A program made the translations under genes and the position numbers. From positions 16,880 through 80,879 of the forward strand of contig CAVQFQ010000019.1 in NCBI GenBank assembly GCA_963711835.1: a stretch of 64,000 nucleotides of DNA, in the 5' to 3' direction. Source of the DNA: an uncultured delta proteobacterium. GTDB taxonomy: Bacteria; Desulfobacterota; RBG-13-43-22. The notes under the pieces were generated by a model. The model had not been told where the DNA came from, searched no databases, and saw nothing but the letters and a program-made list of their open reading frames with translations. This document shows, piece by piece, positions 7,405 through 63,911 of the stretch (positions within the stretch are counted from its first letter, which is position 1; each line of letters begins with the position of its first letter).

Positions 7405-7710
7405 CCCTTATTAAGGGTCTTACAATAATATTTACCAACAGGGACCGGGGGGTCTTCTTTTCTGGGGTTGTCCAAAGGGTAACTCATCGCCCTATCCCGG
7501 CCCGGACGGCTAAGTAGGTTAGGTGCAGGGCATTCACTCAAGTCCGTTTCGGGCATTAGCGTAGGCCTGTCTCTGAATTAGATTCAAATTTTGGCCCGGT
7601 AAAGAAGCTTTGGGCTTGAAGGTGGACAACCCAGAAAAGAAGACCCCCCGGTCCCATTTAATGCAAGCTCCTCAATTTCATGTTAAGACTATGATGAGAC
7701 CCTTAATAAG
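7405..7710 (-). repeat. Palindromic structured element, copy A (core 7441-7655), inverted relative to copies B-E
   Basis: Core arms are GGGACCGGGGGGTCTTCTTTTCTGGGGTTGTCC and GGACAACCCAGAAAAGAAGACCCCCCGGTCCC. Outer stem is CTTATTAAGGGTCT (7407-7420) with AGACCCTTAATAAG (7697-7710). The interior shares GAATGCCC, GGGCCGG and CCCTTTGGACAA blocks with the other copies. Confidence 0.75.
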
Positions 7711-7736
7711 TCAAAAAAAGGTCTTTCAGGAGCGCT

Positions 7737-8201
7737 ATGTTTTCCATAACCGAAATTATTGAACTCGCTGTTCAGATTGAAAAAAACGGGGAAAAATCGT
7801 ATCGAAGGGCCCAGCAGGCGGCCTCCGATGACGCCTTGAAGGCCATGCTCGGGCTACTGGCCGAGGAGGAAGGGGACCACCAGCAGTGGTTCAGGGATCT
7901 AAAGAACCGGATTATCAGCAAAGCCGTTGATCCCGACCTGGAAGAGATGGCCAGGGGATTATTTCAAGGCATTCTGGGGGAAAAGGCTTTTGCCCTGGAC
8001 GAGTTGAATCCGGCTGATCTTTCCGATCTAACGGCCCTGTTGCAGATATCGGCCGAGTTCGAAAAAGATACGGTTCTTTTTTATGAGATGCTGGAGCCGT
8101 TCATAGAAGAGGCTGAGAGCAGGGATCATCTAAAAGCTATTATTGAGGAAGAGAAAGGCCATATTAGAAGGCTTCAGGAACGCATAAAAAACCTGCCCTG
8201 A
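7737..8201 (+). CDS. Ferritin-like / rubrerythrin-family four-helix-bundle protein
   Basis: 154 aa. Paired E..E..H style motifs (AVQIEKNGEKSY, LAEEEGDHQQWF, SAEFEKDTVLFY, IEEEKGHIRRL) are typical of the rubrerythrin/ferritin-like diiron fold. Confidence 0.7.
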   Translation: MFSITEIIELAVQIEKNGEKSYRRAQQAASDDALKAMLGLLAEEEGDHQQWFRDLKNRIISKAVDPDLEEMARGLFQGILGEKAFALDELNPADLSDLTALLQISAEFEKDTVLFYEMLEPFIEEAESRDHLKAIIEEEKGHIRRLQERIKNLP

Positions 8202-9126: not shown

Positions 9127-12100
9127 TTAGATCAATTTTTCTATCCTCACGGCGCAGACTTTCAACTCCGGGATCTTGGCTACCGGATCCAGGGCGGTCT
9201 GGGTCAGGGCATTGGCCGCGGCCTCGGCATAGTGGAAGGGAATGAAGATTGTTCCCCGGGGCGAGCGGTCAGTTATTTTTATCCTGGCTTCTAAAGCCCC
9301 CCGCCTGGACAGGACCCGCACCTGTTCCCAGTCCAAAAGTTTCAAGAAAAAGGCATCTCCGGGGGAGATTTCGATCAGACATTCCGGGGCCATTTTTTCC
9401 AATTCGGGACTCTTCCGGGTCATGGTCCCGGTGTGGTATTGATAGAGCAGACGCCCGGTGGTCAGCGTCAAAGGGAACTCGGCATCCGTCGGTTCCTGGG
9501 GACCTTGGTAGGCAACAGGATGGAACTTTCCTAACCCCCGGCTAAAGCGATCCTTATGGAGGTAAGTAGTCCCCGGATGATCCAGGGTCGGGCAGGGCCA
9601 TTGTAGGCCGATCCGGTTGAGGCGGGCATAGGTCATGCCGGCGTAGGAGGGTGTTACGGTGCGGATCTCTTCAAAAATTTCTTCGGCATTTTTATAAGCC
9701 ATAGGTAGGCCCATCCGGGCGGCCAAGTCGCTGATGATCTCCCAATCCGGGCGGGCCTTTCCAAGAGGAGCGATGGCCTGACGGACCCGCTGGACCCTCC
9801 GTTCGGTGTTGGTAAAGGTCCCATCCTTCTCGGCAAAAGAAACGCCGGGTAAAACGACCTGGGCCAAGCGGGCCGTTTCGGTCAAAAAGATATCCTGAAC
9901 TACCAGAAAATCCAAGGCCTTCAATGCCTGGAGGACATGGTGGGCATCGGGATCCGAGAGGACCGGATTCTCTCCAAAAACATATAATCCCCGAACCTCT
10001 TTTTTTAAGGCCCCATCAAACATTTCCATCAAGGTCAGGCCGGGCTGATCGGGAAGATCCCGGACCCCCCAGGCCCTTTCCATTTTTTCCCTGGCCTCCG
10101 GATCGCTCACCTTTTGATAGCCCGAAAAAACATCAGGCAGGCCGCCCATATCGCAGGCCCCCTGGACGTTGTTCTGCCCCCTCAGGGGATTTACTCCGGC
10201 CGCCGGGAAGCCTACGTTGCCGCAGAGCATGGCCAGATTGGCCAGGGCCTTGACGTTATCGGTCCCGTGGCTGTGCTGGGTAATACCCATGGTGTAGTAA
10301 ATACCGGCCCGGTCTCCGGCGTACAGGCGGGCAGCTTGGTTCAGATCCTTTTCCGGGATGCCGCAAATTTTGGAAACGAAATCCGGGGTGAACTGGGCCA
10401 GGGATTGCTTCCATTCCTCGAACCCTTCAGTCCTGGACCGGACATATTCCTGGTCATAAAGGTCCTCATCCAGGATGATTTTCATAAGTCCGTTGGTCCA
10501 GGCAATATCTGTTCCCGGACGGGGGTGGAGCCAGAGGGTGGCCAGATCAACCAGTTCGATTTTTCTGGGATCCACCACAATCAGCTTGGCCCCGTGTTGC
10601 TGAACGGCTCGCTTGACGGCCGCCCCGATGATGGGATGGTTTTCAGTGGTATTGGAGCCGGTAATCAGGAGGACCTTGGCCTGTTCGATCTCGGCTATGG
10701 AATTGGTCATGGCCCCACTTCCGAAAGCGGCAGCCAGACCGGCTACCGTGGTGGAGTGTCAGAGGCGGGCGCAATGGTCTATGTTGTTGGTTTTAAAAAC
10801 CGCCCGGACCAATTTCTGCATCAGATAGTTTTCTTCATTGGTGGCCCGGGCCGAGGTCAAGGTCGCCAGGGTATTGGGGCCATAGGTTTCCTGCAGCTTT
10901 TGGAAGCGGCCGGCCACCAGATTCAAGGCCTCTTCCCAGGAGGCCTCGCGGAAACCATTCCCCTCCCGGATCAGAGGGGTGGTCAGGCGATCCGGGTGTT
11001 GGATGAAATCGAATCCAAATCGGCCTTTGACACAGAGATGTCCGAAATTAGGGGGCACCCGTTCCACCCCATTGACCCGGACAATTTTCTGGCCGGCTTT
11101 TTCCAGATAGAGCTGGCAACCTACCCCACAATAGGTGCAGGTGGTCTTGGTCCGTTCCAGTTGCCAGGGGCCCGGCAGACCCGGCGTCTTTTCAGTTAAG
11201 GCCCCGGTGGGACAGTTGGCCAGACAAAGTCCGCAAGAGACGCAGCGTTCGTTGATGGTCGCCGAATAGGCCGGAGGCCCGCCTTCGCTTAGGGCCGGCA
11301 CTTCCGGAAGTTCAAAGGCCTTTTGGATTTGGTAATCCGAACAGCCACGGAGGCACCTGCGGCAGGTGATGCACTTGTTCGGGTCGATATGAATGAAGGG
11401 ATGGTACTCCTTAAGAGGGTGCATCCGCTTCGACCAGACCGGCAGCTTATCGATCTCCACTCCGTATTGGACCGAATAAGCCCTTAAACGGCAGTCAAAG
11501 AGATCCTGGCAGCCGCAGGAGAGGCAGCGGGAGGCCTCCTGCATGGCTTCTTCGGCTTTTATGGTGCATTCCACTTCCTCAAAGCTGTTGCGCCTTTTCT
11601 CGATCGGGATATGGGGTTGAAGGACCCGGGGTCTTGGGAGAATTCCTTCAAAATTGACGGGATCTACTTCAGTCCATTTCCCTTTGCTGATATTGAAAGG
11701 TTTTTTCTCCGGATGGATGAATCCCTGGGTCAGAACCTGATGGATGGAAATAGCCGCTCTCCGACCGTCGGCGATGGCCTGGATAACGGTCTGGGGGCCC
11801 CGGAAAAGATCGCCCCCGATAAAAAGATCGGGAATGGAGGTCTGGAGGGTTTGGGGATCGGCTTTAGGGGTTCCCCATTTAGTCAGGGCCAGATTGATCA
11901 ATTCCGGATCCTTTTCGAGAAAGGAAAGATCCGCATATTGGCCGATGGCCACTACGGCGGTATCGGCTTGTATAACGGTTTCCGACCCGGGGATTGGAAA
12001 GGGCCGGGGACGGCCTCCGCTTTCCGATTCACGGAGTTCATTTTGGATATATTCCATCCCGGAAAAACGGCCCTCTTGAGAAAGAATCCGGGTGGGAGAA

Positions 12101-13248
12101 ACAAGAAAGTGCATTTTTAGGCCTTCCTGTTCCGCCGCCGCCACTTCTTCGGGATGGGCGGTCATTTCATTTGGGGACCGGCGATAGAGCAGGGTCACTT
12201 CTTCGGCTCCCAGCCTGAGACAGGTCCTGGCCGCGTCCATGCCGGTATTCCCGTTACCGATGATCAGGACCCTTTTCCCAATTTCAACAGGATCCTTGGC
12301 GGCTATCCGGATAAGCAATTCCAGGGCCGGAATGATGCCGGGCAGGTCTTCACCGGGAAGCCCCAGGCGGGTGGATTTCCAGCACCCGGTGGCCAATAGG
12401 ACGGCTTCAAAGCCCTGGCTGCGGAGGCTGCTGAGAGTAATATCGGAGCCGAAGACCTGATTGACCCGGACCTCGACTCCCAGGTCCAGGATCTGCTGGA
12501 TTTCTTTGTCCAAAATGGCGTTGGGTAAACGGTATTCGGGAATGGCATAGCGGAGCAAGCCCCCCAACTGGGGTTTGGCCTCAAAAATATGGGCGGTATG
12601 CCCTTTGAGACGCAGGTAATGGGCGGCTGAAAGGCCTCCGGGTCCTCCGCCGATCACGGCGACTTTATGTCCGCTGTCTTTGGCTAACGGAGGTTTGAAA
12701 GGAATGTCCTCCAACAGAGCGTAATCGGCCATGAAGCGTTTTAAGGGATTGATGGCCAGGGGCTGATCTACCCGATGGCGGCGGCAGACCTCTTCGCAGG
12801 GATGAGGACAAACCCGGCCGATAACCATGGGAAGAGGATTCCTCTCCTTGATGACCTTTAAGGCCTGGCTGAATTCCCCCCGGCTGATATGGGCCAGATA
12901 ACCCTGGATATCGATCCCGGCCGGGCAGCTCAACTGGCAGGGAGCCAGACAATCTCCGTAATGTTGTTCCAAAAGGAGTTCCAAAATGGCCCGGCGGGAA
13001 GCATGGACCAGAGGGGAGTCGGTCTGGACGACCATCCCTTCCTTTATGGGAGCGGCGCAGGAGGCGATCAGCCGATCCTCCCCTTCAACCTGAACCACGC
13101 AAATGCGGCAGGATTCCTCGGGTTTTAAAAGGGGGTGATGGCAGAAGGTGGGAATAAAAATGCCGGCCTCGGTAGCCGCTTCCAGGATGGTTTTTCCGGA
13201 TGGCGAAGTCACCATTCGTCCATCAATGGACAGGGAAACGTTAGACAT
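9127..13248 (-). CDS. fdhA: Selenocysteine-containing formate dehydrogenase alpha subunit fused to N-terminal 2Fe-2S ferredoxin, GltD-like NAD(P)H/FAD module and 4Fe-4S domains (1373 codons including Sec830)
   Basis: Track ORFs 10759-13248 and 9127-10710 are in the same frame and separated only by TGA at 10759-10761. The junction reads [35 protein letters not shown], the classical FdhA active-site Sec context. Other motifs are VAVIGGGPGGLSAA, IIGNGNTGMDAA and CTYCGVGC. Confidence 0.85.
10729..10747 (-). promoter_or_regulatory. SECIS-like hairpin 11 nt downstream of the UGA
   Basis: RNA reads GGUAGCC-GGUCU-GGCUGCC, a 7-bp stem (one G-U pair) with a GGUCU loop, at the spacing expected for a bacterial SECIS. 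Confidence 0.7.
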
Positions 13249-27299: not shown

Positions 27300-27370
27300 T
27301 TCCCGGTTGCCTTCTCCCCCCGGCCACGTCCATCTCGAACCTTTCCTGCCCCAACCCTTTTTTTTAATCC

Positions 27371-27682
27371 TTTGGTGTCGTTCAAAAGTTGTGGCATTAT
27401 ATTTCTGATACCCGATGGAAAGGGACCGGGGGTCTTGATTTCAAGGATTGTCCGCCAAAACGCTGGCAACCCTGAACCCGGGCAGGAAGTTTGTAAGTGG
27501 GTTTAAAAACAGGCCTACACCAAAGCGATTTATCGGCTTAGGTGAATGCCCGGCTCTTAACCAACTTAGAAATTCGGGCCGGGTTGGGGCTACGGATTAC
27601 CTTTGCGGACAATCCTTGAAATCAAGACCCCCGGTCCCTAAGTCAGACGATAATACGCCAGTGCCATAACTTTTGAACGTTA
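27371..27682 (+). mobile_element. Palindromic structured element, copy B (core 27422-27638), flanked by direct repeat TTAATCC
   Basis: The 34-bp arms are perfectly complementary (GGGACCGGGGGTCTTGATTTCAAGGATTGTCCGC). Outer inverted repeat is CGTTCAAAAGTTGTGGCA / TGCCATAACTTTTGAACG. TTAATCC occurs at 27364-27370 and 27683-27689. Confidence 0.7.
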
Positions 27683-27743
27683 TTAATCCGTTAAGGAAGT
27701 GGTACTTAGCCAGACCTTTTAACGGCCTTTCCTGATTTATGAT

Positions 27744-29411
27744 ATGGAGCTTCGAGCCTTAAAAGATCTTATGGATGTCTTGCCCCACCAGGTCGGGGTT
27801 TATCTGATGAAGGATCAGCACGACCGGATTCTTTATGTCGGAAAGGCCAAAGACCTGAAAAAAAGGGTCCTTTCCTATCTGAAGGCGGAACGTCCCAAGG
27901 TCTCTTCTCTTTTGGAACGGGTGGAAAAACTGGATTTTCTTCTCACCGCGAATGAAAAAGAGGCCCTGATCCTTGAGAGTAATCTCATCAAAAAGCATCT
28001 CCCCCGCTACAATGTTGTCCTGAGAGACGACAAACAATATCCCTCCCTGCGGGTGAGTCTGGATGAGGCCTTCCCCAGGCTGCAGATGGTCCGCCGGATC
28101 AAGAAGGACAAGGCCTTTTATTTCGGTCCGTTTTCTTCAGCCCGGAAAATGAAGGAAACCACGACCTACCTTCAAAAAATATTTCCTCTCCGGTTATGCC
28201 GTCAAAAAGAAATTCCCCAACGTTCCCGGCCCTGCCTCTACTACCAGACCGGTAAATGCCCGGCTCCCTGTCATGGGAAAATCCAACCCGAGGAATACCG
28301 CCGGCGGGTCAAAGAAATCATCTGGTTTTTTGAAGGCCGGAATCAAGAACTGTTAAAAAACCTCAAGAGGCAAATGAAAGAGGCTTCGGCGGAATGGGCC
28401 TTTGAAAAGGCGGCCCTTTTGCGGGACCGTATCCGGGCTATCTCCGAAACCTTAAAGGAGCAGAAGATCGTTTCCCCCCGATTTATTGATGTGGACGTCA
28501 TCGCCCTCTTCCAGGAAGGGGAGTCGATCCGGGCCGGCATACTATTCGTCCGACTGGGTTCGGTGACGGGTTTAAGCCGTTTCCGGTTTAAAGACTTGAA
28601 CCTTTCTCCTTCCGAGGTGCTGACCGGGCTGATTCAACAATACTATCGGGGAGGGAAATATATTCCGCCGCGGATTCTGATGCCCTTTCCGATTGAAGAT
28701 CGATCCCTCCTGGAGGAGGTCCTTTCGGATCTGAAAGGGCAGAAGGTCACCTTAATGGTCCCGGTTCGGGGGGAGGGACGGCGCTGGATGGCCATGGCCG
28801 AGGAAAATATTCGCTTGGTCCAGGAGAATAAGGAACCCTCCCAGGACTATGTCGAGAAGGTAGCCAAGCCCTTGCAAAGCCGATTGGGCTTAAAACGCCT
28901 TCCCTATTCCGTTGGGGCCTTGGATATCTCCAATATTCAAGGAGAGTCGGCAGTCGGATCGTGGGTGGTCTTTAAACAGGGCCACTCGGACAAATCCGGT
29001 TACCGTCGCTTCAGGATTCGGTCTGGCGACCAACCCAATGATTATGCTATGATGGAAGAAGTGATCGCACGGTTGTTCCGGAGGGAAGCTCCTTGGCCGG
29101 ACTTGGTGCTGATAGACGGAGGCAAGGGACAACTCAATATTTTGACTACATTCATCGGCCGGTTGCCTGAGGATCAGAGACCCGATGCGCTGGCCCTGGC
29201 CAAAAAAACCTTTTTACCCGAGGGCGGCAAGGACGGCATTTACCTCCCGAATCGGAAAAATCCACTGCGCCTGTCTTCCGATTCTCCCCTGCTGCATTAT
29301 CTGGAAAAGGTCCGAGATGAGGCCCATCGATTTGCCCTGAGTTACCATCATAAACTCCGGGAAAAAAGGCTTCGGCCTGAAAAACAAAAGGCCTCGCCTC
29401 GGGTCGACTGA
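27744..29411 (+). CDS. uvrC: Excinuclease ABC subunit C, lacking the usual C-terminal helix-hairpin-helix domain
   Basis: GIY-YIG start GVYLMKDQHDRILYVGKAKDLKKRV, UVR domain and endonuclease domain. Ends at 555 aa just after RDEAHRFALSYHHKLR. Confidence 0.9.
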   Translation: MELRALKDLMDVLPHQVGVYLMKDQHDRILYVGKAKDLKKRVLSYLKAERPKVSSLLERVEKLDFLLTANEKEALILESNLIKKHLPRYNVVLRDDKQYPSLRVSLDEAFPRLQMVRRIKKDKAFYFGPFSSARKMKETTTYLQKIFPLRLCRQKEIPQRSRPCLYYQTGKCPAPCHGKIQPEEYRRRVKEIIWFFEGRNQELLKNLKRQMKEASAEWAFEKAALLRDRIRAISETLKEQKIVSPRFIDVDVIALFQEGESIRAGILFVRLGSVTGLSRFRFKDLNLSPSEVLTGLIQQYYRGGKYIPPRILMPFPIEDRSLLEEVLSDLKGQKVTLMVPVRGEGRRWMAMAEENIRLVQENKEPSQDYVEKVAKPLQSRLGLKRLPYSVGALDISNIQGESAVGSWVVFKQGHSDKSGYRRFRIRSGDQPNDYAMMEEVIARLFRREAPWPDLVLIDGGKGQLNILTTFIGRLPEDQRPDALALAKKTFLPEGGKDGIYLPNRKNPLRLSSDSPLLHYLEKVRDEAHRFALSYHHKLREKRLRPEKQKASPRVD

Positions 29412-47963: not shown

Positions 47964-48045
47964 AATTCCGGATTACGGTTCCGGCGTATTGCGCTTGACA
48001 TTTATAGGGAATAGTGAAAAAAATTTTATGAGTAATGCCATTCAT

Positions 48046-48367
48046 CGGTATCGTTCAAAAGTTGTGGCATTATATTTTTGATACACGATAGAAGGGGACC
48101 GGGGGTCTTGATTTCAAGGTTGTCCACCATAAACTCCTCACCTTGAAATCCCGCTTTTAGCGGGGCTGGAAGGGTGACGGTAATGCCTTAAGCAGGCCTT
48201 CACCAAAGCTGTTTGTCCGGTTGGGTGAATGCCCGGCTCTAAACCACCCTTAGAAATCAGGGCCGGATTGGTGGGAAGGATCACCCTTTGGACAAGCCTT
48301 GAAATCAAGACCCCCGGTCCCCCAGTCAGGAAATAATGCGCCAATGCCAAAATTTTTTAACGATACT
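48046..48367 (+). mobile_element. Palindromic structured element, copy C (core 48094-48322), flanked by direct repeat CATTCAT
   Basis: Arms are GGGGACCGGGGGTCTTGATTTCAAGGTTGTCCA / TGGACAAGCCTTGAAATCAAGACCCCCGGTCCCC (one bulge). The outer repeat GTATCGTTCAAAAGTTGTGGCA faces TGCCAAAATTTTTTAACGATAC. CATTCAT occurs at 48039-48045 and 48368-48374. Confidence 0.7.
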
Positions 48368-48392
48368 CATTCATTAGGATAAGGAATAAAAC

Positions 48393-50987
48393 ATGCTTAA
48401 AAAAATTCGCTGGAAATTTACTCTGATTGCCGTGCTGGTGGCCGTATCCATCCTTTTTATTATCCCCTCCCTGACTAAAAATTTTCCTTCCTGGTGGAAA
48501 CCGATTCTGCCCTCGGAAGGCATGCGTTTGGGTCTGGATTTGCAGGGCGGGATGCACCTGATCCTGAAGGTGGATTTAATCAAGGCTACCCGCAACCATC
48601 TGGAACTGGTCCAGCAGGATTTACGGGAAACCCTGAGGAAAAAGCAGGTCCCGGCCAGCCGGGGAGAGGTTGCCGGAGACAACCGGCTCAGTTTTCTGAT
48701 CCCCAACGCCGACCACTTGGCCCAGGTTCAAAAAACCATTAAGGAAGAATTCCCCAGCTTAACTCTCATCGCCACCCTGCCCAAACAGGAAGGGGTGCAG
48801 CTGGATATTGCTCTCAAGGAAAAAGAGATCAAGTCCATTACTGAGAATGCCCTTTCCCAGAGCCTGGAAATCATCCGCAACCGGATTGATCAGTTCGGGG
48901 TTACCGAGCCGACGATTGTGCGGCAGGGATCGGATGAGATCGTGGTTCAGTTGCCCGGGGTCAAGGATCCCCAAAGGGCCATGGATCTTATCGGCCGGAC
49001 CGCCCAGTTGGAATTTAAACTGGTGGATGCCGAGACCAAACTGGACCTGGCCGGCCTCATCGAACAGGCCGTTAGCAGCGGCAAGCTTAAAAGTGAATAC
49101 GGCCATGCCGACCTGAACCTGGCTCTGAAAGATGCGCTCCCGCTGGAAAGGGAAATCTTTATTCGAAAAGAGGTCAACCGGGAAACCGGCCGGGTCAGCC
49201 GGGTGCCGGTCTTGCTCTTTACCAAGACGTTGATGACCGGCGATGCCATCAAGACCGCCCAGGTTCAGATCGGAGGAAATTTTAACGAGCCCTATGTCAG
49301 CGTGACGCTGAATACCCATGGCAGCCGGGTTTTCGACCAGGTCACCCGGGACAATGTGGGCCGCCAGTTAGCCATTGTTCTGGATCAGGTGGTCCAATCG
49401 GCGCCGGTAATCCAGGAAAGGATATCCGGCGGCCAGGCCCAGATTACCGGCTCCTTCAGCATGGAAGAGGCCACCGATCTGGCTATCGTCCTGCGGGCCG
49501 GGGCCTTGCCGGCTCCGGTGCACATCGTTCAAAATGTAACTGTAGGCCCGTCTCTGGGGCTGGATTCCATCAACAAAGGTTTCCTGTCGGGTCTGGTGGG
49601 GACGGCCCTGGTCGTCTTGTTCATGATGTATTACTACCGTTTTTCCGGCCTGGTGGCCAACCTGGCCCTGTTCTTAAATGTGATTTTTATGATGGCTGCT
49701 TTGGGAATATTCCGGGCCACCCTGACCCTGCCCGGGATTGCCGGGATCATCCTCTCCATCGGAATGGCGGTGGATTCAAACGTCCTGATCTTTGAACGGA
49801 TGCGGGAGGAATTCCATGCCGGAAAGCCGGTCAAGTCCGGGGTGGACGGCGGTTATGACAAGGCTTTCTGGACCATCATCGATTCCCATGTTACAACTCT
49901 GATCACGGCCTTCGCCCTCTTTCTCTTCGGCTCGGGGCCAATTAAGGGCTTTGCCGTGACCTTGAGTATCGGCGTGATCTTTAACCTTTTCACCGCCCTT
50001 TTTTGCACCAGGGTGGTTTATGATTATCTCAGCGTCAAGCGGCGTCTCAAGGCCCTGCGCTTCGTGGAATTTATCAAGAAATCCCAAATCGATTTTATCG
50101 GCCTGAGGAAATACGCTTTTATCCTGTCCGGGATCCTGGTCCTGATCGGGATTATCGCCTTTGTTCAGATCAATCGGGGCGAGGCCAACCTGGGAGTGGA
50201 TTTTTCCGGAGGGACCATGGTCCAGTTCAAGGCCGCTCAATCCTTCCGGCTGGATAAAGTCCGCATGGCTTTAGTCCAAAGGGGTTTTAAGGATGCCGAA
50301 CTGCAGCAGGTGGCCAATGAAAATATTCTGATTGTGCGGACCAAGAAAGCTGAACAGTCGGTCGGCAAGGAGGCCGAGGCCATCGGCAAGGCCCTGCAGG
50401 AGGACTTCCCGGAACTCAAATTCGCCATGGAGAGCAAGGCCGAGATCGGGGCCTCGGTCAGCAGCGCCTTAAAGAAGGCGGCCCTGATCGCCATTGCCAT
50501 TTCCCTGGCGGGGATCATCATCTACCTGGGCTGGCGATTTGAACTGCGCTTCGGGGTGGCGGCCGCCATCGCCACCTTTCATGATGTCCTGGCCGTATTG
50601 GGGATCTTCTATCTGCTGGACAAGGAAATCACCCTGCTCATCATCACCGCTTTATTAACCCTGGCCGGGTATTCCCTGACCGATACCGTAGTGGTCTTTG
50701 ACCGTATCCGGGAAACCATGGGCCGCGGCGGCAAAAGGACCTTCGGGGAGATCATCAACATCAGCATCAACGAAGTCCTTTCGCGGACCATCATTACTTC
50801 CCTGACCGTCTTCCTGGTGGTCCTGGCCCTCTTCTTCCTGGGCGGGGTGGTCATCCATGATTTTGCCCTGGCCCTGCTCCTGGGGGTGGTGATCGGCACC
50901 TATTCCTCCATCTTTGTGGCTTCTCCTATTGTCTTTCACTGGCCGGGAAAGAAACAGAGAGGGAAGAGGGGAAGAAGCAAGAAATAA
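48393..50987 (+). CDS. secDF: Protein translocase subunit SecDF (fused SecD-SecF)
   Basis: 864 aa. GLDLQGGMHL and the first periplasmic domain, followed by two 6-TM halves. Confidence 0.95.
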   Translation: MLKKIRWKFTLIAVLVAVSILFIIPSLTKNFPSWWKPILPSEGMRLGLDLQGGMHLILKVDLIKATRNHLELVQQDLRETLRKKQVPASRGEVAGDNRLSFLIPNADHLAQVQKTIKEEFPSLTLIATLPKQEGVQLDIALKEKEIKSITENALSQSLEIIRNRIDQFGVTEPTIVRQGSDEIVVQLPGVKDPQRAMDLIGRTAQLEFKLVDAETKLDLAGLIEQAVSSGKLKSEYGHADLNLALKDALPLEREIFIRKEVNRETGRVSRVPVLLFTKTLMTGDAIKTAQVQIGGNFNEPYVSVTLNTHGSRVFDQVTRDNVGRQLAIVLDQVVQSAPVIQERISGGQAQITGSFSMEEATDLAIVLRAGALPAPVHIVQNVTVGPSLGLDSINKGFLSGLVGTALVVLFMMYYYRFSGLVANLALFLNVIFMMAALGIFRATLTLPGIAGIILSIGMAVDSNVLIFERMREEFHAGKPVKSGVDGGYDKAFWTIIDSHVTTLITAFALFLFGSGPIKGFAVTLSIGVIFNLFTALFCTRVVYDYLSVKRRLKALRFVEFIKKSQIDFIGLRKYAFILSGILVLIGIIAFVQINRGEANLGVDFSGGTMVQFKAAQSFRLDKVRMALVQRGFKDAELQQVANENILIVRTKKAEQSVGKEAEAIGKALQEDFPELKFAMESKAEIGASVSSALKKAALIAIAISLAGIIIYLGWRFELRFGVAAAIATFHDVLAVLGIFYLLDKEITLLIITALLTLAGYSLTDTVVVFDRIRETMGRGGKRTFGEIINISINEVLSRTIITSLTVFLVVLALFFLGGVVIHDFALALLLGVVIGTYSSIFVASPIVFHWPGKKQRGKRGRSKK

Positions 50988-51013
50988 AGAATTAGGATAA
51001 ACAAAGGCATTAT

Positions 51014-51134
51014 CGGAAATTCGAAATCCGAAACAAATCCTAATGATCAAAACTCAAAATTCAAAACGTTTGGTTTTGATAATTGAAATTTGAAAATTTG
51101 TGCTTGTTTCGGATTTCATGCTTCGAATTTCGAG
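51014..51134. repeat. Long AT-rich imperfect hairpin of low-complexity words between convergent secDF and cytochrome b genes (possible bidirectional terminator)
   Basis: CGGAAATTCGAAATCCGAAACAA pairs with TTGTTTCGGATTTCATGCTTCGAATTTCG. The inner GATCAAAAC...GTTTTGAT segments are also complementary. Confidence 0.5.
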
Positions 51135-51224
51135 TTTAAGAAACAGGGGAGGTTGACTACATTTTCTAACTCGGCATCCGGCATCAGACACCAAGCATCG
51201 GATATCCCCGTCACTTGTCACACA

Positions 51225-51863: not shown

Positions 51864-52333
51864 AAATTAACCCGAAAAGCCTGATCCACTATTCGGCCGG
51901 TATCGGCCCAGAGCGTTTTTTTCCCGTCCAGCCAAAGGAAGGGCCGGGAGAGGGGACGCGTTGCCGGTCCCTTGGTCGGGAAACCCTGGAGGTCGAAGCG
52001 GCTGCCGTGACAGGGGCAGATCAATAGCTTGCTGGTTTGATCCAGCGCCGGCCGGCAGCCTAGATGGGTGCAGATGTTGGAAAGGGCATACCAGCCTCGT
52101 TCATCTTGAATCAACCAGAGGCCCTGTGCAAAATGCCAAGGGGTTTTTGATTGGGCCAGGGCTTGGGAACCGATTACCGGAAATTTGGCGGGCCTGTCCG
52201 GCATGGCCGGAGAAAAAAGAAAGGAAACCCCCTGCTTCAATAGGAGATAAACCGATCCCGCCCCGGCCAGCAGGCCCAGCGTTAAAAAGATCCTTCGGGA
52301 AAATCGGGAATCAAAGGGGGGAAGAAATCTCAA
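51860..52333 (-). CDS. Rieske 2Fe-2S protein with Tat-type signal
   Basis: SRRIFL twin-arginine motif and CTHLGC...CPCHGS cluster boxes. The stop overlaps the cytochrome b start. Confidence 0.9.
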   Translation of the reverse strand: MRFLPPFDSRFSRRIFLTLGLLAGAGSVYLLLKQGVSFLFSPAMPDRPAKFPVIGSQALAQSKTPWHFAQGLWLIQDERGWYALSNICTHLGCRPALDQTSKLLICPCHGSRFDLQGFPTKGPATRPLSRPFLWLDGKKTLWADTGRIVDQAFRVNL

Positions 52334-52527
52334 AGTTGACTCTGTTCAGAATTTCTTTTTTTAGGTATAATTTCCTTAAAAGTAAATCCCGGCTCTGCCG
52401 GAGGAATCCCTGAGGTTGACAAATCTCCCTCAATCCCCCTTCCCAAAGGGGAAAGTTTCCCCTCCCTTTGAAAAAGGCAGGTCGGGAAGGATTTACAAGG
52501 CCTTTTGTTTTTTTAAAATATTATTCC

Positions 52528-52905
52528 ATGGAAAACAAGGAAGAAAGAATAACCCGCGATCAGCTCCTGTTCAAGGAATTCATCGCCCTTCTGGTTTTAT
52601 TGTTTTTCTGCTGCTGGCTGGCGGTCTGGGTTCCCGCCCCTTTGTCCCAGCCGGGAGGAGAGATGCTACCTCCCGGGGTGACGGTTCAGGCCCCCTGGAT
52701 CTTCGCCGGCCTGCAGACCTTGCTGCTCTATTTCCATCCCCTTGTGGCAGGTCTTGTCTTTCCCCTGGTCGTACTCCTCTTCCTGGTCCTATTGCCCCTG
52801 GAGGCCAAAACCCGACTCCACCCCGCCCTGACGCGAATTCTTTTCGCCCTCCTCCTACTGGGAGGAATCGCCCTTACCCTTTATGGTCTTTTTCGAATAA
52901 AATGA
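52528..52905 (+). CDS. Small three-TM membrane protein resembling cytochrome b C-terminal part / b6f subunit IV
   Basis: ATG 52528 inside track ORF 52468-52905. VQAPWIFAGLQTLL resembles the PEWY-loop region of subunit IV. It is divergent from the Rieske gene. Confidence 0.55.
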   Translation: MENKEERITRDQLLFKEFIALLVLLFFCCWLAVWVPAPLSQPGGEMLPPGVTVQAPWIFAGLQTLLLYFHPLVAGLVFPLVVLLFLVLLPLEAKTRLHPALTRILFALLLLGGIALTLYGLFRIK

Positions 52906-52909
52906 TCGG

Positions 52910-53239
52910 AATAGTCCCAAAGTTACGTGAATCTCAAACCGATGGGGTCGCTTCTTAAAATATTAAAACACCCCAAAGGGCTTCAGAGGCCTTGATTCCA
53001 AGGATTGTCCGCCAAAACGCCAGCCGCCTGAACCCGGGCAGGAAGTTCATAATGGGGTTTAGAAACAGGCCAACACCAAAGCTATTTATCGTCTTGGGTG
53101 AATGCCCGGCTCCCAACCAACTTAGAAATTAGGGCCGGGTTGGGGCTACGGATTACCTTTTGGACAACCTTGAAATCAAGACCCCCGAAGCCCTCTATGA
53201 ATGGATAGCTTAAAAATCACGTAACGTTGGGACAAACTC
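52910..53239 (+). mobile_element. Palindromic structured element, copy D (core 52977-53194), flanked by 10-bp direct repeat AAATGATCGG
   Basis: AAATGATCGG occurs at 52900-52909 (it includes the TGA stop of the upstream gene) and at 53240-53249. Outer inverted repeat is GTCCCAAAGTTACGTGA / TCACGTAACGTTGGGAC. The core interior closely matches copy B. Confidence 0.75.
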
Positions 53240-53270
53240 AAATGATCGGGTATTTGTTTTTTTGACTGGC

Positions 53271-58591: not shown

Positions 58592-58809
58592 GGTATAGGG
58601 GGGTCTTATTTTTTTAAGTTATCCACCCCAAAGCCATAAACTTCTTTGCCGGGCCAAACTGCGAACCCTATTTTATCAGCAAGCCTACACCCAAGCTGGA
58701 AATAAGCTTTGGTGAATGCCCTACCTAACGTAAACTTAATTATTCGGGCCGAATTAGGGGCTCTTCGTCACCCTTTGGACAACTTAAAAAAATAAGACCC
58801 CCCTACACC
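58592..58809 (+). repeat. Palindromic structured element, copy E (most divergent)
   Basis: Arms are GGTATAGGGGGGTCTTATTTTTTTAAGTTATCCA / TGGACAACTTAAAAAAATAAGACCCCCCTACACC. The interior has GGTGAATGCCC, GGGCCG and CCCTTTGGACAA. Confidence 0.7.
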
Positions 58810-61618: not shown

Positions 61619-62272
61619 ATGAAACTTCAATTTATTGAGGCCCGGGATCTGCCGGATGCCTGGTTCCAGTGCGTTTATGAAATCCTCGATCGCGGCCAGG
61701 AATATGTCATTGACCGGGGAAGCTGCGCCGGGCAGAAGCGCTTGGAATTCGACTATATTACGGTCCGGATCAAATTTCCGGGGACCCGGCCCTTGATTCC
61801 CGATATCCCTCCTGCACTGGGAATTCCCAATCCTGTTGCGGAGGGCTATGTGGAACAATATCTGCCTTATCTGATGACCGCCGCCAAACAGCCCAATGAG
61901 GATTATACCTATGGCCAGTATCTGGAGCCCCAGATCCGGGAAGTGATCCGCATGTACCGGGAAGAAGGCTACGGCACCAATCAGGCCTTTATGACCGTGG
62001 GCGATCCCCAAACCATCTTTCTCAATGACCCTCCCTGCCTGCGGGGTATCGACACCCGCATCCGCGACGGCCGTCTGCATTTTTTTGTCTATTTCCGGTC
62101 CTGGGATTTATGGAACGGCTTCCCGGCCAATCTGGCGGCCATCCAGATGCTCAAGGAGTACATGGCTGCCGAAATCGGGGTAGGGGAGGGCGAGATCATC
62201 GCCGCCAGCAAAGGTCTGCATCTATACGATTACGTCTGGGAACTGGCCAAACTGCGGGCCTTAAAAAAGTAA
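61619..62272 (+). CDS. Thymidylate synthase-like protein (short archaeal-type ThyA / deoxynucleotide methylase-hydroxymethylase family)
   Basis: 217 aa. DYTYGQYL, DPPCLRGID (catalytic Cys context) and FRSWDLWNGFPANL. Confidence 0.7.
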   Translation: MKLQFIEARDLPDAWFQCVYEILDRGQEYVIDRGSCAGQKRLEFDYITVRIKFPGTRPLIPDIPPALGIPNPVAEGYVEQYLPYLMTAAKQPNEDYTYGQYLEPQIREVIRMYREEGYGTNQAFMTVGDPQTIFLNDPPCLRGIDTRIRDGRLHFFVYFRSWDLWNGFPANLAAIQMLKEYMAAEIGVGEGEIIAASKGLHLYDYVWELAKLRALKK

Positions 62273-62305
62273 GGCAGAAATACCGACTGCGCAGGTATTT
62301 CTGCC
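62273..62305 (+). terminator. Hairpin GGCAGAAATAC-N11-GTATTTCTGCC immediately after the thyA-like stop
   Basis: 11-bp perfect stem. It lies inside the 184-bp direct repeat, and a second degenerate copy is at 63127-63159. Confidence 0.5.
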
Positions 62306-62310
62306 AAGAA

Positions 62311-62980: not shown

Positions 62981-63162
62981 GGCCAATCTGGCGGCTATTC
63001 AAATTCTCAAGGAATATGGCGGCCGAAATCGGGGTAGGGGAGGGCGAGATCATCGCCGCCAGCAAAGGCCTGCATTTGTACGATTATGTCTGGGAACTAG
63101 CCAAACTGCGGGCCTTAAAAAAGTGAGGCAGAAATACCGACTGAGCCGGCATTTCTGCCAAG
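62981..63162 (+). pseudogene. Orphan duplicate of the thyA-like 3' end plus terminator hairpin (direct repeat of 62125-62308)
   Basis: GGCCAATCTGGCGGC...GGGGTAGGGGAGGGCGAGATCATCGCCGCCAGCAAAGG...AAACTGCGGGCCTTAAAAAAGT(A/G)AGGCAGAAATACCGACTG... is shared. The second copy has an indel near 63010-63020 and has no upstream part of the gene. Confidence 0.8.
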
Positions 63163-63254: not shown

Positions 63255-63506
63255 ATGGCTGCAATGATAGCAACAAATATACGGCTTCCCGAAGATCTTT
63301 TGAAGGCCCTTAAGTACAGAGCAATCGAGGAGAAAAAGAGCGTGAATCAGATTATCCGCGAAGCGATCGAGATGTCTCTTGCTGCCGCTCCCCAGCCGGA
63401 AGAACGCGAAATGGACCCTTTTGAAGACATGATCGGAATCGCAAGATCAGGCATCAAGGATGCGTCTTCTAAGCATGACCGCTACCTCTACGGGACAAAA
63501 CGATGA
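63255..63506 (+). CDS. Ribbon-helix-helix (CopG/VapB-like) antitoxin
   Basis: 83 aa. TNIRLPEDLLKALKYRAIEEKKSVNQIIREAIE is an RHH motif. Its stop overlaps the PIN gene start. Confidence 0.7.
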   Translation: MAAMIATNIRLPEDLLKALKYRAIEEKKSVNQIIREAIEMSLAAAPQPEEREMDPFEDMIGIARSGIKDASSKHDRYLYGTKR

Positions 63507-63911
63507 AGTTGTTTGTAGACACGGGGGCATTTATAGCGCTCACAGATGCAGATGACGAAAACCACAAAGCTGCTGTCTGCCTTTTACAGAAATGCAAAGG
63601 AAAAGGGGACGCGGTTTGTCACCACAAACTTCGTTGTCTGCGAGACGATGAATTACCTCAGGGCAAGGATTTCACATCATATCGCTGTTCTTTTCCGGGA
63701 GAACCTGAAGAAGAGCGGCTTCATTGAAATTGTCACAGTTACCCCTTCTATTGAGGACGCGGCTTTTACTATTTTCAAACGATACACTGACAAGGATTTC
63801 AGTTTTACCGACTGCACGAGCTTTTCCATCATGAGGTCTCTTAAACTGAAAAAGGCCTTTGCCTTTGACAAACATTTTGAGCAATTTGAAGGCATCAGCC
63901 GCCTGCCCTGA
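63503..63911 (+). pseudogene. vapC: PIN-domain VapC-like toxin interrupted by one frameshift near 63575-63590
   Basis: MKLFVDTGAFIALTDADDENHKAAV (frame of 63503) continues as AFYRNAKEKGTRFVTTNFVVCETMNYL...FSFTDCTSFSIMRSLKLKKAFAFDKHF in the frame of track ORF 63546-63911. Confidence 0.6.

Follow-up and report, generated by a model that had tools for sequence, protein, structure and literature searches.

MITEs of probably two or more unrelated families share a hairpin passenger in a 64-kb stretch of a delta proteobacterial chromosome

The window, by which we mean the whole analysed stretch of 64,000 nucleotides from an uncultured delta proteobacterium, is core chromosome without a transposase. 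A Pfam scan of about 60 ORFs returned housekeeping genes only (thrS-infC-rplT-pheST, ligA, dnaK-grpE-hrcA, tatBC, uvrC, secDF, cytochrome genes and others), in agreement with an earlier note on this DNA, which had seen no transposase, integrase or reverse transcriptase gene in the window. A tblastn search of the window with the ISH6 transposase described below gave only a marginal 69-aa match (E 0.06), and within the 64 kb no transposase gene was tied to the genome of this organism.

Five related stretches, A to E, were located in the window, all of them intergenic (Table 1). In four of the five, the start codon of a housekeeping gene (secDF, uvrC, a rubrerythrin-like gene and an unnamed gene) follows at a distance of 17-90 nt, and these copies may therefore affect the expression of the adjoining genes. 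The distance from the element end to the downstream start codon is 17 nt for C (secDF), 51 nt for B (uvrC) and 28 nt for A (rubrerythrin-like gene). The window positions concerned are 48368-48395 (C), 27685-27746 (B) and 7707-7739 (A); transcription of these three genes either crosses the element or begins inside it. The cytochrome gene adjoining D had no exact-protein record.

Table 1. Positions of copies A to E, of their passenger modules and of the duplications flanking D, in window coordinates
Feature	Position	Remarks
D, left duplication AAATGATC	52900-52907	Holds the TGA stop of ORF 52468-52905; single copy kept in the X2 empty-site contig
Copy D, 332-bp element (probable MITE, ISH6 type), diverged ends	52908-53239	Terminal repeats 52908-52930 (GGAATAGTCCCAAAGTTACGTGA) and 53217-53239
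D, right duplication AAATGATC	53240-53247	
D, passenger module (hairpin stem and conserved centre)	52978-53194	nhmmer E 4e-45; alignments
Copy C with duplications	48039-48375	321-bp element (probable MITE) 48047-48367; terminal repeats 48047-48069 and 48345-48367
C, passenger module, small extra hairpin CCCGCTTTTAGCGGG in centre	48094-48322	
Copy B with duplications	27366-27692	311-bp element (probable MITE) 27374-27684; terminal repeats 27374-27396 and 27662-27684; upstream of uvrC
B, passenger module	27422-27638	
Copy A with TA duplications (7409-7410 and 7707-7708)	7409-7708	296-bp MITE 7411-7706; ends TTAAGGGTCTTA.../...TGAGACCCTTAA
A, passenger module	7441-7655	Orientation opposite to B-E in window coordinates; nhmmer E 7e-59
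Copy E, 234-bp segment	58578-58811	Module 58592-58809, with 14 nt to its left and 2 nt to its right; neither terminal repeat nor duplication

Other features of the window were recorded alongside the five copies. On the minus strand two ORFs (10762-13248 and 9130-10710) are parts of one molybdopterin oxidoreductase (formate-dehydrogenase-like) gene, separated by an in-frame TGA (10759-10761) within HCARL*HSTTV; this TGA looks like a selenocysteine codon rather than the sign of a broken gene. An AT-rich imperfect palindrome of about 110 bp (51010-51135, arms 51023-51067 and 51073-51117) has a depth of 300-900x in metagenomes compared with 7-10x for its flanks, and in related strains the segment 50989-51224 is replaced by 156 other letters. 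This palindrome probably represents a further repeat family. At 52430-52495 a short G/C-run hairpin repeat (CCCCTTCCCAAAGGGGAAAG...CCCCTCCCTTTGAAAAAGG) reaches a metagenome depth of up to ~4700x, and in other genomes sequences similar to it form the cargo of some TA-duplicating MITEs (L166, L186, L193). Close to the end of the window there are two ~93% identical copies of a stretch of about 180 bp that ends in the 33-nt palindrome GGCAGAAATACCGACTGCGCAGGTATTTCTGCC (62125-62308 and 62981-63162), the first of which overlaps the end of a thymidylate-synthase-like ORF. They are followed by a small ORF and a PIN-domain ORF (63255-63911), likely a VapBC-type toxin-antitoxin pair.

The part common to A-E is a module of about 215 bp, in which a stem of 35-40 bp closes a conserved, asymmetric centre of about 150 nt. 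The layout of the stem is ...GGGGTCTT-variable-GGTTGTCC / GGACAACC-variable'-AAGACCCC..., and the centre contains the invariant blocks TTTGCCGGGCC, GCAGGCC, GTGAATGCCC and GGGCCGG. Outside the module the sequences differ. The arms of B and C end in GGT(G/A)TCGTTCAAAAGTTGTGGCA (the ISH6-type end sequence is GGTAWCGTTCAAAAGTTGWGGCA), D has the diverged form GGAATAGTCCCAAAGTTACGTGA, which is a variant also present in L030 and L047, A has TTAAGGGTCTCA, and E has neither type of end. The five stretches, listed as copies in the earlier note, do not form one transposon family: the module is shared and the ends are not. With regard to size and coding capacity the elements resemble MITEs: they are 296-332 bp long, contain no conserved ORF, and the centre has stops in all frames. 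Terminal repeats combined with a duplication of fixed length were found in B, C and D (23 bp with 8 bp) and in A (12-18 bp ends with TA), and not in E.

The terminal inverted repeat of the B, C and D elements is the 23-bp sequence GGTATCGTTCAAAAGTTGTGGCA, of which D has a diverged version. When the flanks were anchored on this repeat, a uniform 8-bp duplication was found directly abutting both ends in all three copies: AATCCTTT (27366-27373) and AATCCGTT (27685-27692) in B, CATTCATC (48039-48046) and CATTCATT (48368-48375) in C, and AAATGATC on both sides in D. The direct repeats listed in the earlier note are thus present, but their lengths had to be revised. The 10-bp repeat AAATGATCGG of D (52900-52909 and 53240-53249) is an 8-mer plus GG, where the left GG opens the left terminal repeat and the right GG is flanking host DNA. 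The 7-bp repeat CATTCAT of C (48039-48045 and 48368-48374) belongs to a duplication of 8 bp, and so does, after a change of register, the 7-bp repeat TTAATCC of B (27364-27370 and 27683-27689). The stop codon that had been placed in the left repeat of D is indeed there, the TGA at 52903-52905 ending ORF 52468-52905. The statement that A and E lack a duplication proved correct for E; A is flanked by a 2-bp duplication, TA.

The flanks were then compared in a larger sample. Genomes, one per species, were scanned for CGTTCAAAAGTTGWGGCA, which yielded more than 100 loci, mostly in Thermodesulfobacteriota assemblies. The test set (n = 28) comprised 27 inverted pairs with the 23-bp terminal repeat, taken from other genomes and from the window, plus copy D. 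The two flanks were identical at 8/8 positions in 15 of the 28 elements and at 7/8 positions in a further five, that is 20/28 in total. As a null we paired left and right flanks across different copies, an arrangement that preserves the AT-rich bias of the targets. In this null the probability of a match at 7/8 or more positions was 0.033 per element, and the chance of such matches in all three window copies B, C and D was about 4e-5. The consensus over the 15 perfect duplications, AAWTNWTT, has the length and the AT-rich composition of ISH6-type duplications. The flanking repeats are true target-site duplications.

Because tblastx detected no orthologous loci among the assemblies examined, empty sites were sought in metagenome contigs. 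Public sediment metagenomes contain strains ~94-97% identical to the window, and the comparison with element-free sites in relatives, which the earlier note had recommended, gave a positive result for D, A and C. For D, one 2349-nt contig (X2) covers 52000-52899 and resumes at 53240; 8 letters fit both sides of the joint, and the 340 bp skipped correspond to the element plus one copy of AAATGATC. For A, contigs of X1 and X4, whose depth is that of a single copy, pass from 7410 to 7714 via AGTC. The empty site reads CCCT-TA-AGTC and the filled site CCCT-TA-[TTAAGGG...CCCTTAA]-TA-AGTC, from which a TA duplication at a TTAA target follows. For C, contigs of X1, X6 and X8 join 48044 to 48389 through eight diverged letters and leave a single CATTCA. 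The empty sites of D and A are precise or nearly so; the C site also differs in a few adjoining bases. No empty site was found for B in eight metagenome runs, where the orthologous contigs end at the element. In the case of E, contigs of X1, X3 and X4 at single-copy depth join 58577 straight to 58812 with no shared letters, and another X1 contig runs into the element, revealing a 234-bp presence/absence polymorphism. The occurrence of filled and empty sites at the level of strains in sediment populations suggests that the activity was evolutionarily recent. It is virtually inconceivable that the flanking repeats are chance matches in AT-rich intergenic DNA: the two 7-mers are weak evidence by themselves and target sites are biased in composition, but the observed matches, those of all three window copies included, far exceed a null that preserves this bias, and the existence of empty sites with a single repeat copy already refutes chance.

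A search for insertion sequences with matching ends, also advised in the earlier note, led to full-length elements in related genomes that have a perfect 8-bp duplication and an ISH6-family transposase. The terminal repeat of B and C matches the ends of transposase-encoding elements of 1.5-1.7 kb in related deltaproteobacterial assemblies at 20-22 of 23 positions. Two inverted pairs of ends, 1533 and 1662 bp apart (L135:2841-4373 and L060:1607-3268), have related transposase ORFs, and L135:2841-4373 is flanked by the perfect duplication AAATAATT. The 459-aa protein of L060 matched the NCBIfam model NF041731 (ISH6 family transposase) with 467 bits (E 4e-140, cut-off 240) and showed weaker matches to IS256; the ORFs of L135 cluster with this protein in blastp comparison. 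Autonomous elements with the same ends as the B/C/D type thus exist at both loci. The terminal repeat of D agrees with the consensus at 15 of 23 positions, and because its ends are diverged, the assignment of D to ISH6 rests on partial similarity and on the 8-bp duplication. Contigs ~85% identical to the whole L135 element were found in the metagenomes that hold the relatives of the window (e.g. in X3, 2031 nt, depth 46).

Two further arrangements of ISH6-type ends were encountered in this search. At L087:4635-6581 two such ends are separated by 1.9 kb, and the stretches of about 100 nt that follow them are inverted with respect to each other. This locus was considered as an autonomous element and rejected, as it encloses a TPR-like gene and no transposase; it may be a composite or gene-capturing element. 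At L135:2841-4404 a second ISH6-type left end is situated eight bases past the right end of the full-length element, with the same 8-bp sequence AAATAATT, forming a head-to-tail insertion pair at one target.

Copy A has other relatives. A scan for its end TTAAGGGTCTCAWARTAR showed that this sequence is present in many Deltaproteobacteria and Nitrospirota assemblies, and among the matches listed TA was found on both sides in about 45 of 49 inverted end pairs. The elements of this family are 87-490 bp long; the short ones have unrelated interiors, and the module is present in most of the elements that measure about 300 bp. No ORF that could encode a transposase was found inward of the ends among the 104 loci listed. 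A is a MITE of a second family, which duplicates TA at TTAA, and its assignment as IS630/Tc1-mariner-like is made because of the TA duplication only.

We consider it very probable that B, C, D and A are MITEs of at least two unrelated families, which carry a shared hairpin passenger of ~215 bp and were moved by transposases encoded elsewhere. Terminal repeats, target-site duplications, empty sites (D, A and C) and autonomous relatives with the same ends were observed, and there is no enzyme in the window. These results uphold the claim that the elements moved in the past through an enzyme supplied in trans. B, C and D would be ISH6-family MITEs (Mutator superfamily; ISDesp5-like), whose 23-bp terminal inverted repeats would be bound by a DDE transposase. 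Integration would take place at AT-rich sites, preferentially at AAnnnnTT, a pattern seen most clearly in B and less so in C and D, and repair of the staggered cuts would generate the 8-bp duplication. A would be a MITE of the second family, with TA duplicated at TTAA, and would resemble IS630/Tc1-mariner or some IS5 groups, and E would represent the module in a third setting, where no transposon ends can be recognised. The transposases were probably encoded by the same genome or by a recent ancestor. In our preferred reading the module is passive cargo, which would flip when its own stem arms of 35-40 bp recombine, and would often be deleted. The cut-and-paste model does not explain the presence/absence of the 234-bp segment E, which has no ends and no duplication, and passive cargo does not explain the conservation of centre blocks such as GTGAATGCCC and TTTGCCGGGCC or the use of several unrelated vehicles.

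The distribution of the module was determined by a profile search, which found 86 copies in at least eight assemblies. They sit within at least four or five types of ends: ISH6-type, TA-type, two more in JAZDOU01, and the E context, where the motif TTAGATTCT-N-CTGAGAATTTATCTCTAAC lies on one side of the module. Relative to the asymmetric arms the centre occurs in both orientations (e.g. 13 vs 8 in the TA family), and the flipped arrangement was also seen in metagenome contigs, in which a left arm of the C/B type is joined to the opposite strand of the module. In other genomes MITEs with ISH6-type or TA-type ends contain unrelated internal sequences. Such heterogeneity of the interiors between the same ends indicates that the module is carried as cargo and does not belong to the ends. 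The same arms also occur without the module, and where these module-free versions could be read they are deletion derivatives: L167 retains about 20 nt from one arm of the stem, with ATTT at either end of the deletion, and other module-free joints share a GGTC microhomology. We also considered whether insertion had copied the target in inverted form to give the variable outer stem, and rejected this, the module-free versions being deletion derivatives with microhomology. No recurrent protein gene was found adjoining the module copies, and the plasmid and phage collections contained no match. One match in the viral collection was rejected as a chance match in coding sequence.

A small independent repeat was noticed during the inspection of the copies. 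It consists of the mini-hairpin GGTCGGC-TATG/TTTG-GCCGACC followed by GGCTTCC-NNNN-GGAAGCC (L011:6500-6560, L024:5830-5890, L049:80-140), and the same pair is also nested in the module copies L028, L032, L025 and others. Between genomes, one pair of its stems varies with compensation (GGTCGGC/GCCGACC vs GGTCAGC/GCTGACC).

In another reading the module would be an element in its own right, either a hairpin transposon that makes no duplication or a unit with a function as DNA or RNA, and would ride in MITEs of several unrelated transposase families. We regard this as possible, though we would not expect it to be the case. The 150-nt centre would then be the recognition site of an enzyme or of another partner. 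In a more specific form of mobility, which we judge to be unlikely, the module is an independent mobile hairpin of the REPIN or IS200/IS605 type (single-stranded, duplication-free) that has colonised several MITE families and has been spread further by them. Its occurrence within at least four or five end types agrees with such a history, as do the presence/absence of E without duplication or microhomology and the existence of module-free versions of the same MITE arms. Moreover, the boundaries of E lie inside the conserved flanking motif GAATTTATCTCTA, which also occurs without the module. However, several of the module-free versions are clearly deletion derivatives (L167 with ATTT, the GGTC joints), and the single clean presence/absence case could likewise be a deletion. 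Neither a Y1 (tyrosine) transposase nor any other recurrent gene adjoins the copies, and no target motif common to the different contexts was seen.

A multicopy structured non-coding RNA gene, in which selection on RNA folding maintains the stem and the centre and the flanking repeats are incidental, is an improbable identity for the module. Double changes were found in 17 of the 31 predicted stem pairs, some blocks of the centre are invariant and a small hairpin there varies with compensation, the folding z-scores for the two strands of D are -5 and -9, and the centre is covered by metatranscriptome contigs. In these RNA contigs, however, the depth of the module relative to its flanks is about equal to that in the DNA runs. 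The better folding of D on the minus strand, for which this strand was considered as the RNA strand, did not prove general, as in other copies now one strand and now the other has the lower minimum free energy. G-U-type stem mismatches are equally frequent on both strands (66 vs 72), and this balance is the pattern of a DNA palindrome and not that of an RNA made from one strand. Rfam gave no match to the whole window at the gathering score, and nothing relevant to D and B even at E 10. In MAFFT alignments, one with 36 and one with 53 copies, the centre showed no detectable covariation except at a single small hairpin, which was assessed by eye. Scans revealed no conserved promoter or terminator. 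The orientation of the module to the neighbouring genes is inconsistent in the window, and the centre occurs in both orientations to its own arms. What appeared as variable domains lengthening some copies is an independent mini-repeat, which is also found outside the module. Since Rfam gave no match, the strands are balanced, promoter and terminator are not conserved and the orientation is inconsistent, the module is treated here as a palindromic DNA repeat.

The two orientations of the centre, which were seen in every family with enough copies, could also mean that the module is an invertible DNA segment (inverton), with the stem arms as recombinase sites and the centre as a directional signal switched by inversion. 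The contigs in which a C/B-type left arm is joined to the opposite-strand module fit this interpretation, and within the stem conservation is highest at the inner arm ends GGTTGTCCA/TGGACAACC. We nevertheless find an inverton very improbable. Both orientations were seen only among paralogous copies and not at one locus, the metagenome contigs breaking at the repeat, and ordinary recombination between perfect inverted repeats of 35-40 bp accounts for the flips. The window has no recombinase gene, and the centre no conserved promoter-like signal.

The transposon biology of the preferred reading, in which MITEs carry the module as passive cargo, is itself ordinary: MITEs, terminal repeats, duplications and enzymes acting in trans. 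The copies add a concrete bacterial set of ISH6-derived MITEs with the 8-bp AT-rich duplication of the family. Less ordinary is that one conserved hairpin module is common to MITEs with different ends, is found either way round and has in turn been invaded by a smaller repeat. Should the module have a mobility or a function of its own, it would be a passenger sequence exploiting several transposition systems.

ISH6 is a small family, known mostly from archaea. In the literature searched we found no description of bacterial MITEs derived from ISH6 or of MITEs of this kind. Compared with the ISH6 insertion sequences, the window copies are only 311-332 bp long, lack an ORF and have foreign cargo in place of the transposase gene. 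ISH6 was placed in the Mutator superfamily by Guerillot et al. 2014 (PMC3942029), who reported a duplicated target of 8 bp, AT-rich, AANATNTT, and a deltaproteobacterial member, ISDesp5, from an uncultured Desulfobacterium. B, C and D are like ISDesp5/ISH6 (p-MULT 2) in their 8-bp AT-rich duplication of the AANATNTT type and in their ends, which begin with GGT; the likeness to ISDesp5 is one by description.

Copy A is similar to IS630/Tc1-mariner MITEs (Stowaway-like, Correia-like) in its short terminal repeats, its TA duplication at TTAA, its length of about 300 bp and its intergenic, multicopy occurrence, although this assignment is made by the duplication alone and some IS5 groups also give TA-containing duplications of 2-4 bp. 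The module and the mini-hairpins nested in it recall REP/REPIN and ERIC sequences, which are likewise intergenic, palindromic and multicopy, have compensated stems, and nest within one another and within MITEs. The module differs from REP sequences in its length (~215 vs ~35 nt), in its conserved non-palindromic centre of 150 nt and in having no linked RAYT-type gene. The very small nested repeats of cyanobacteria, reportedly described by Elhai et al. in 2008, can be likened to the module and its nested mini-hairpins. The arrangement can also be compared with Pack-MULEs and cargo-carrying MITEs, which are also non-autonomous Mutator-type elements with ends around a captured, unrelated interior and with a cargo that is heterogeneous among identical ends. 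Pack-MULEs are plant elements that contain gene fragments, whereas the cargo described here is non-coding and palindromic, and recurs in unrelated MITE families.
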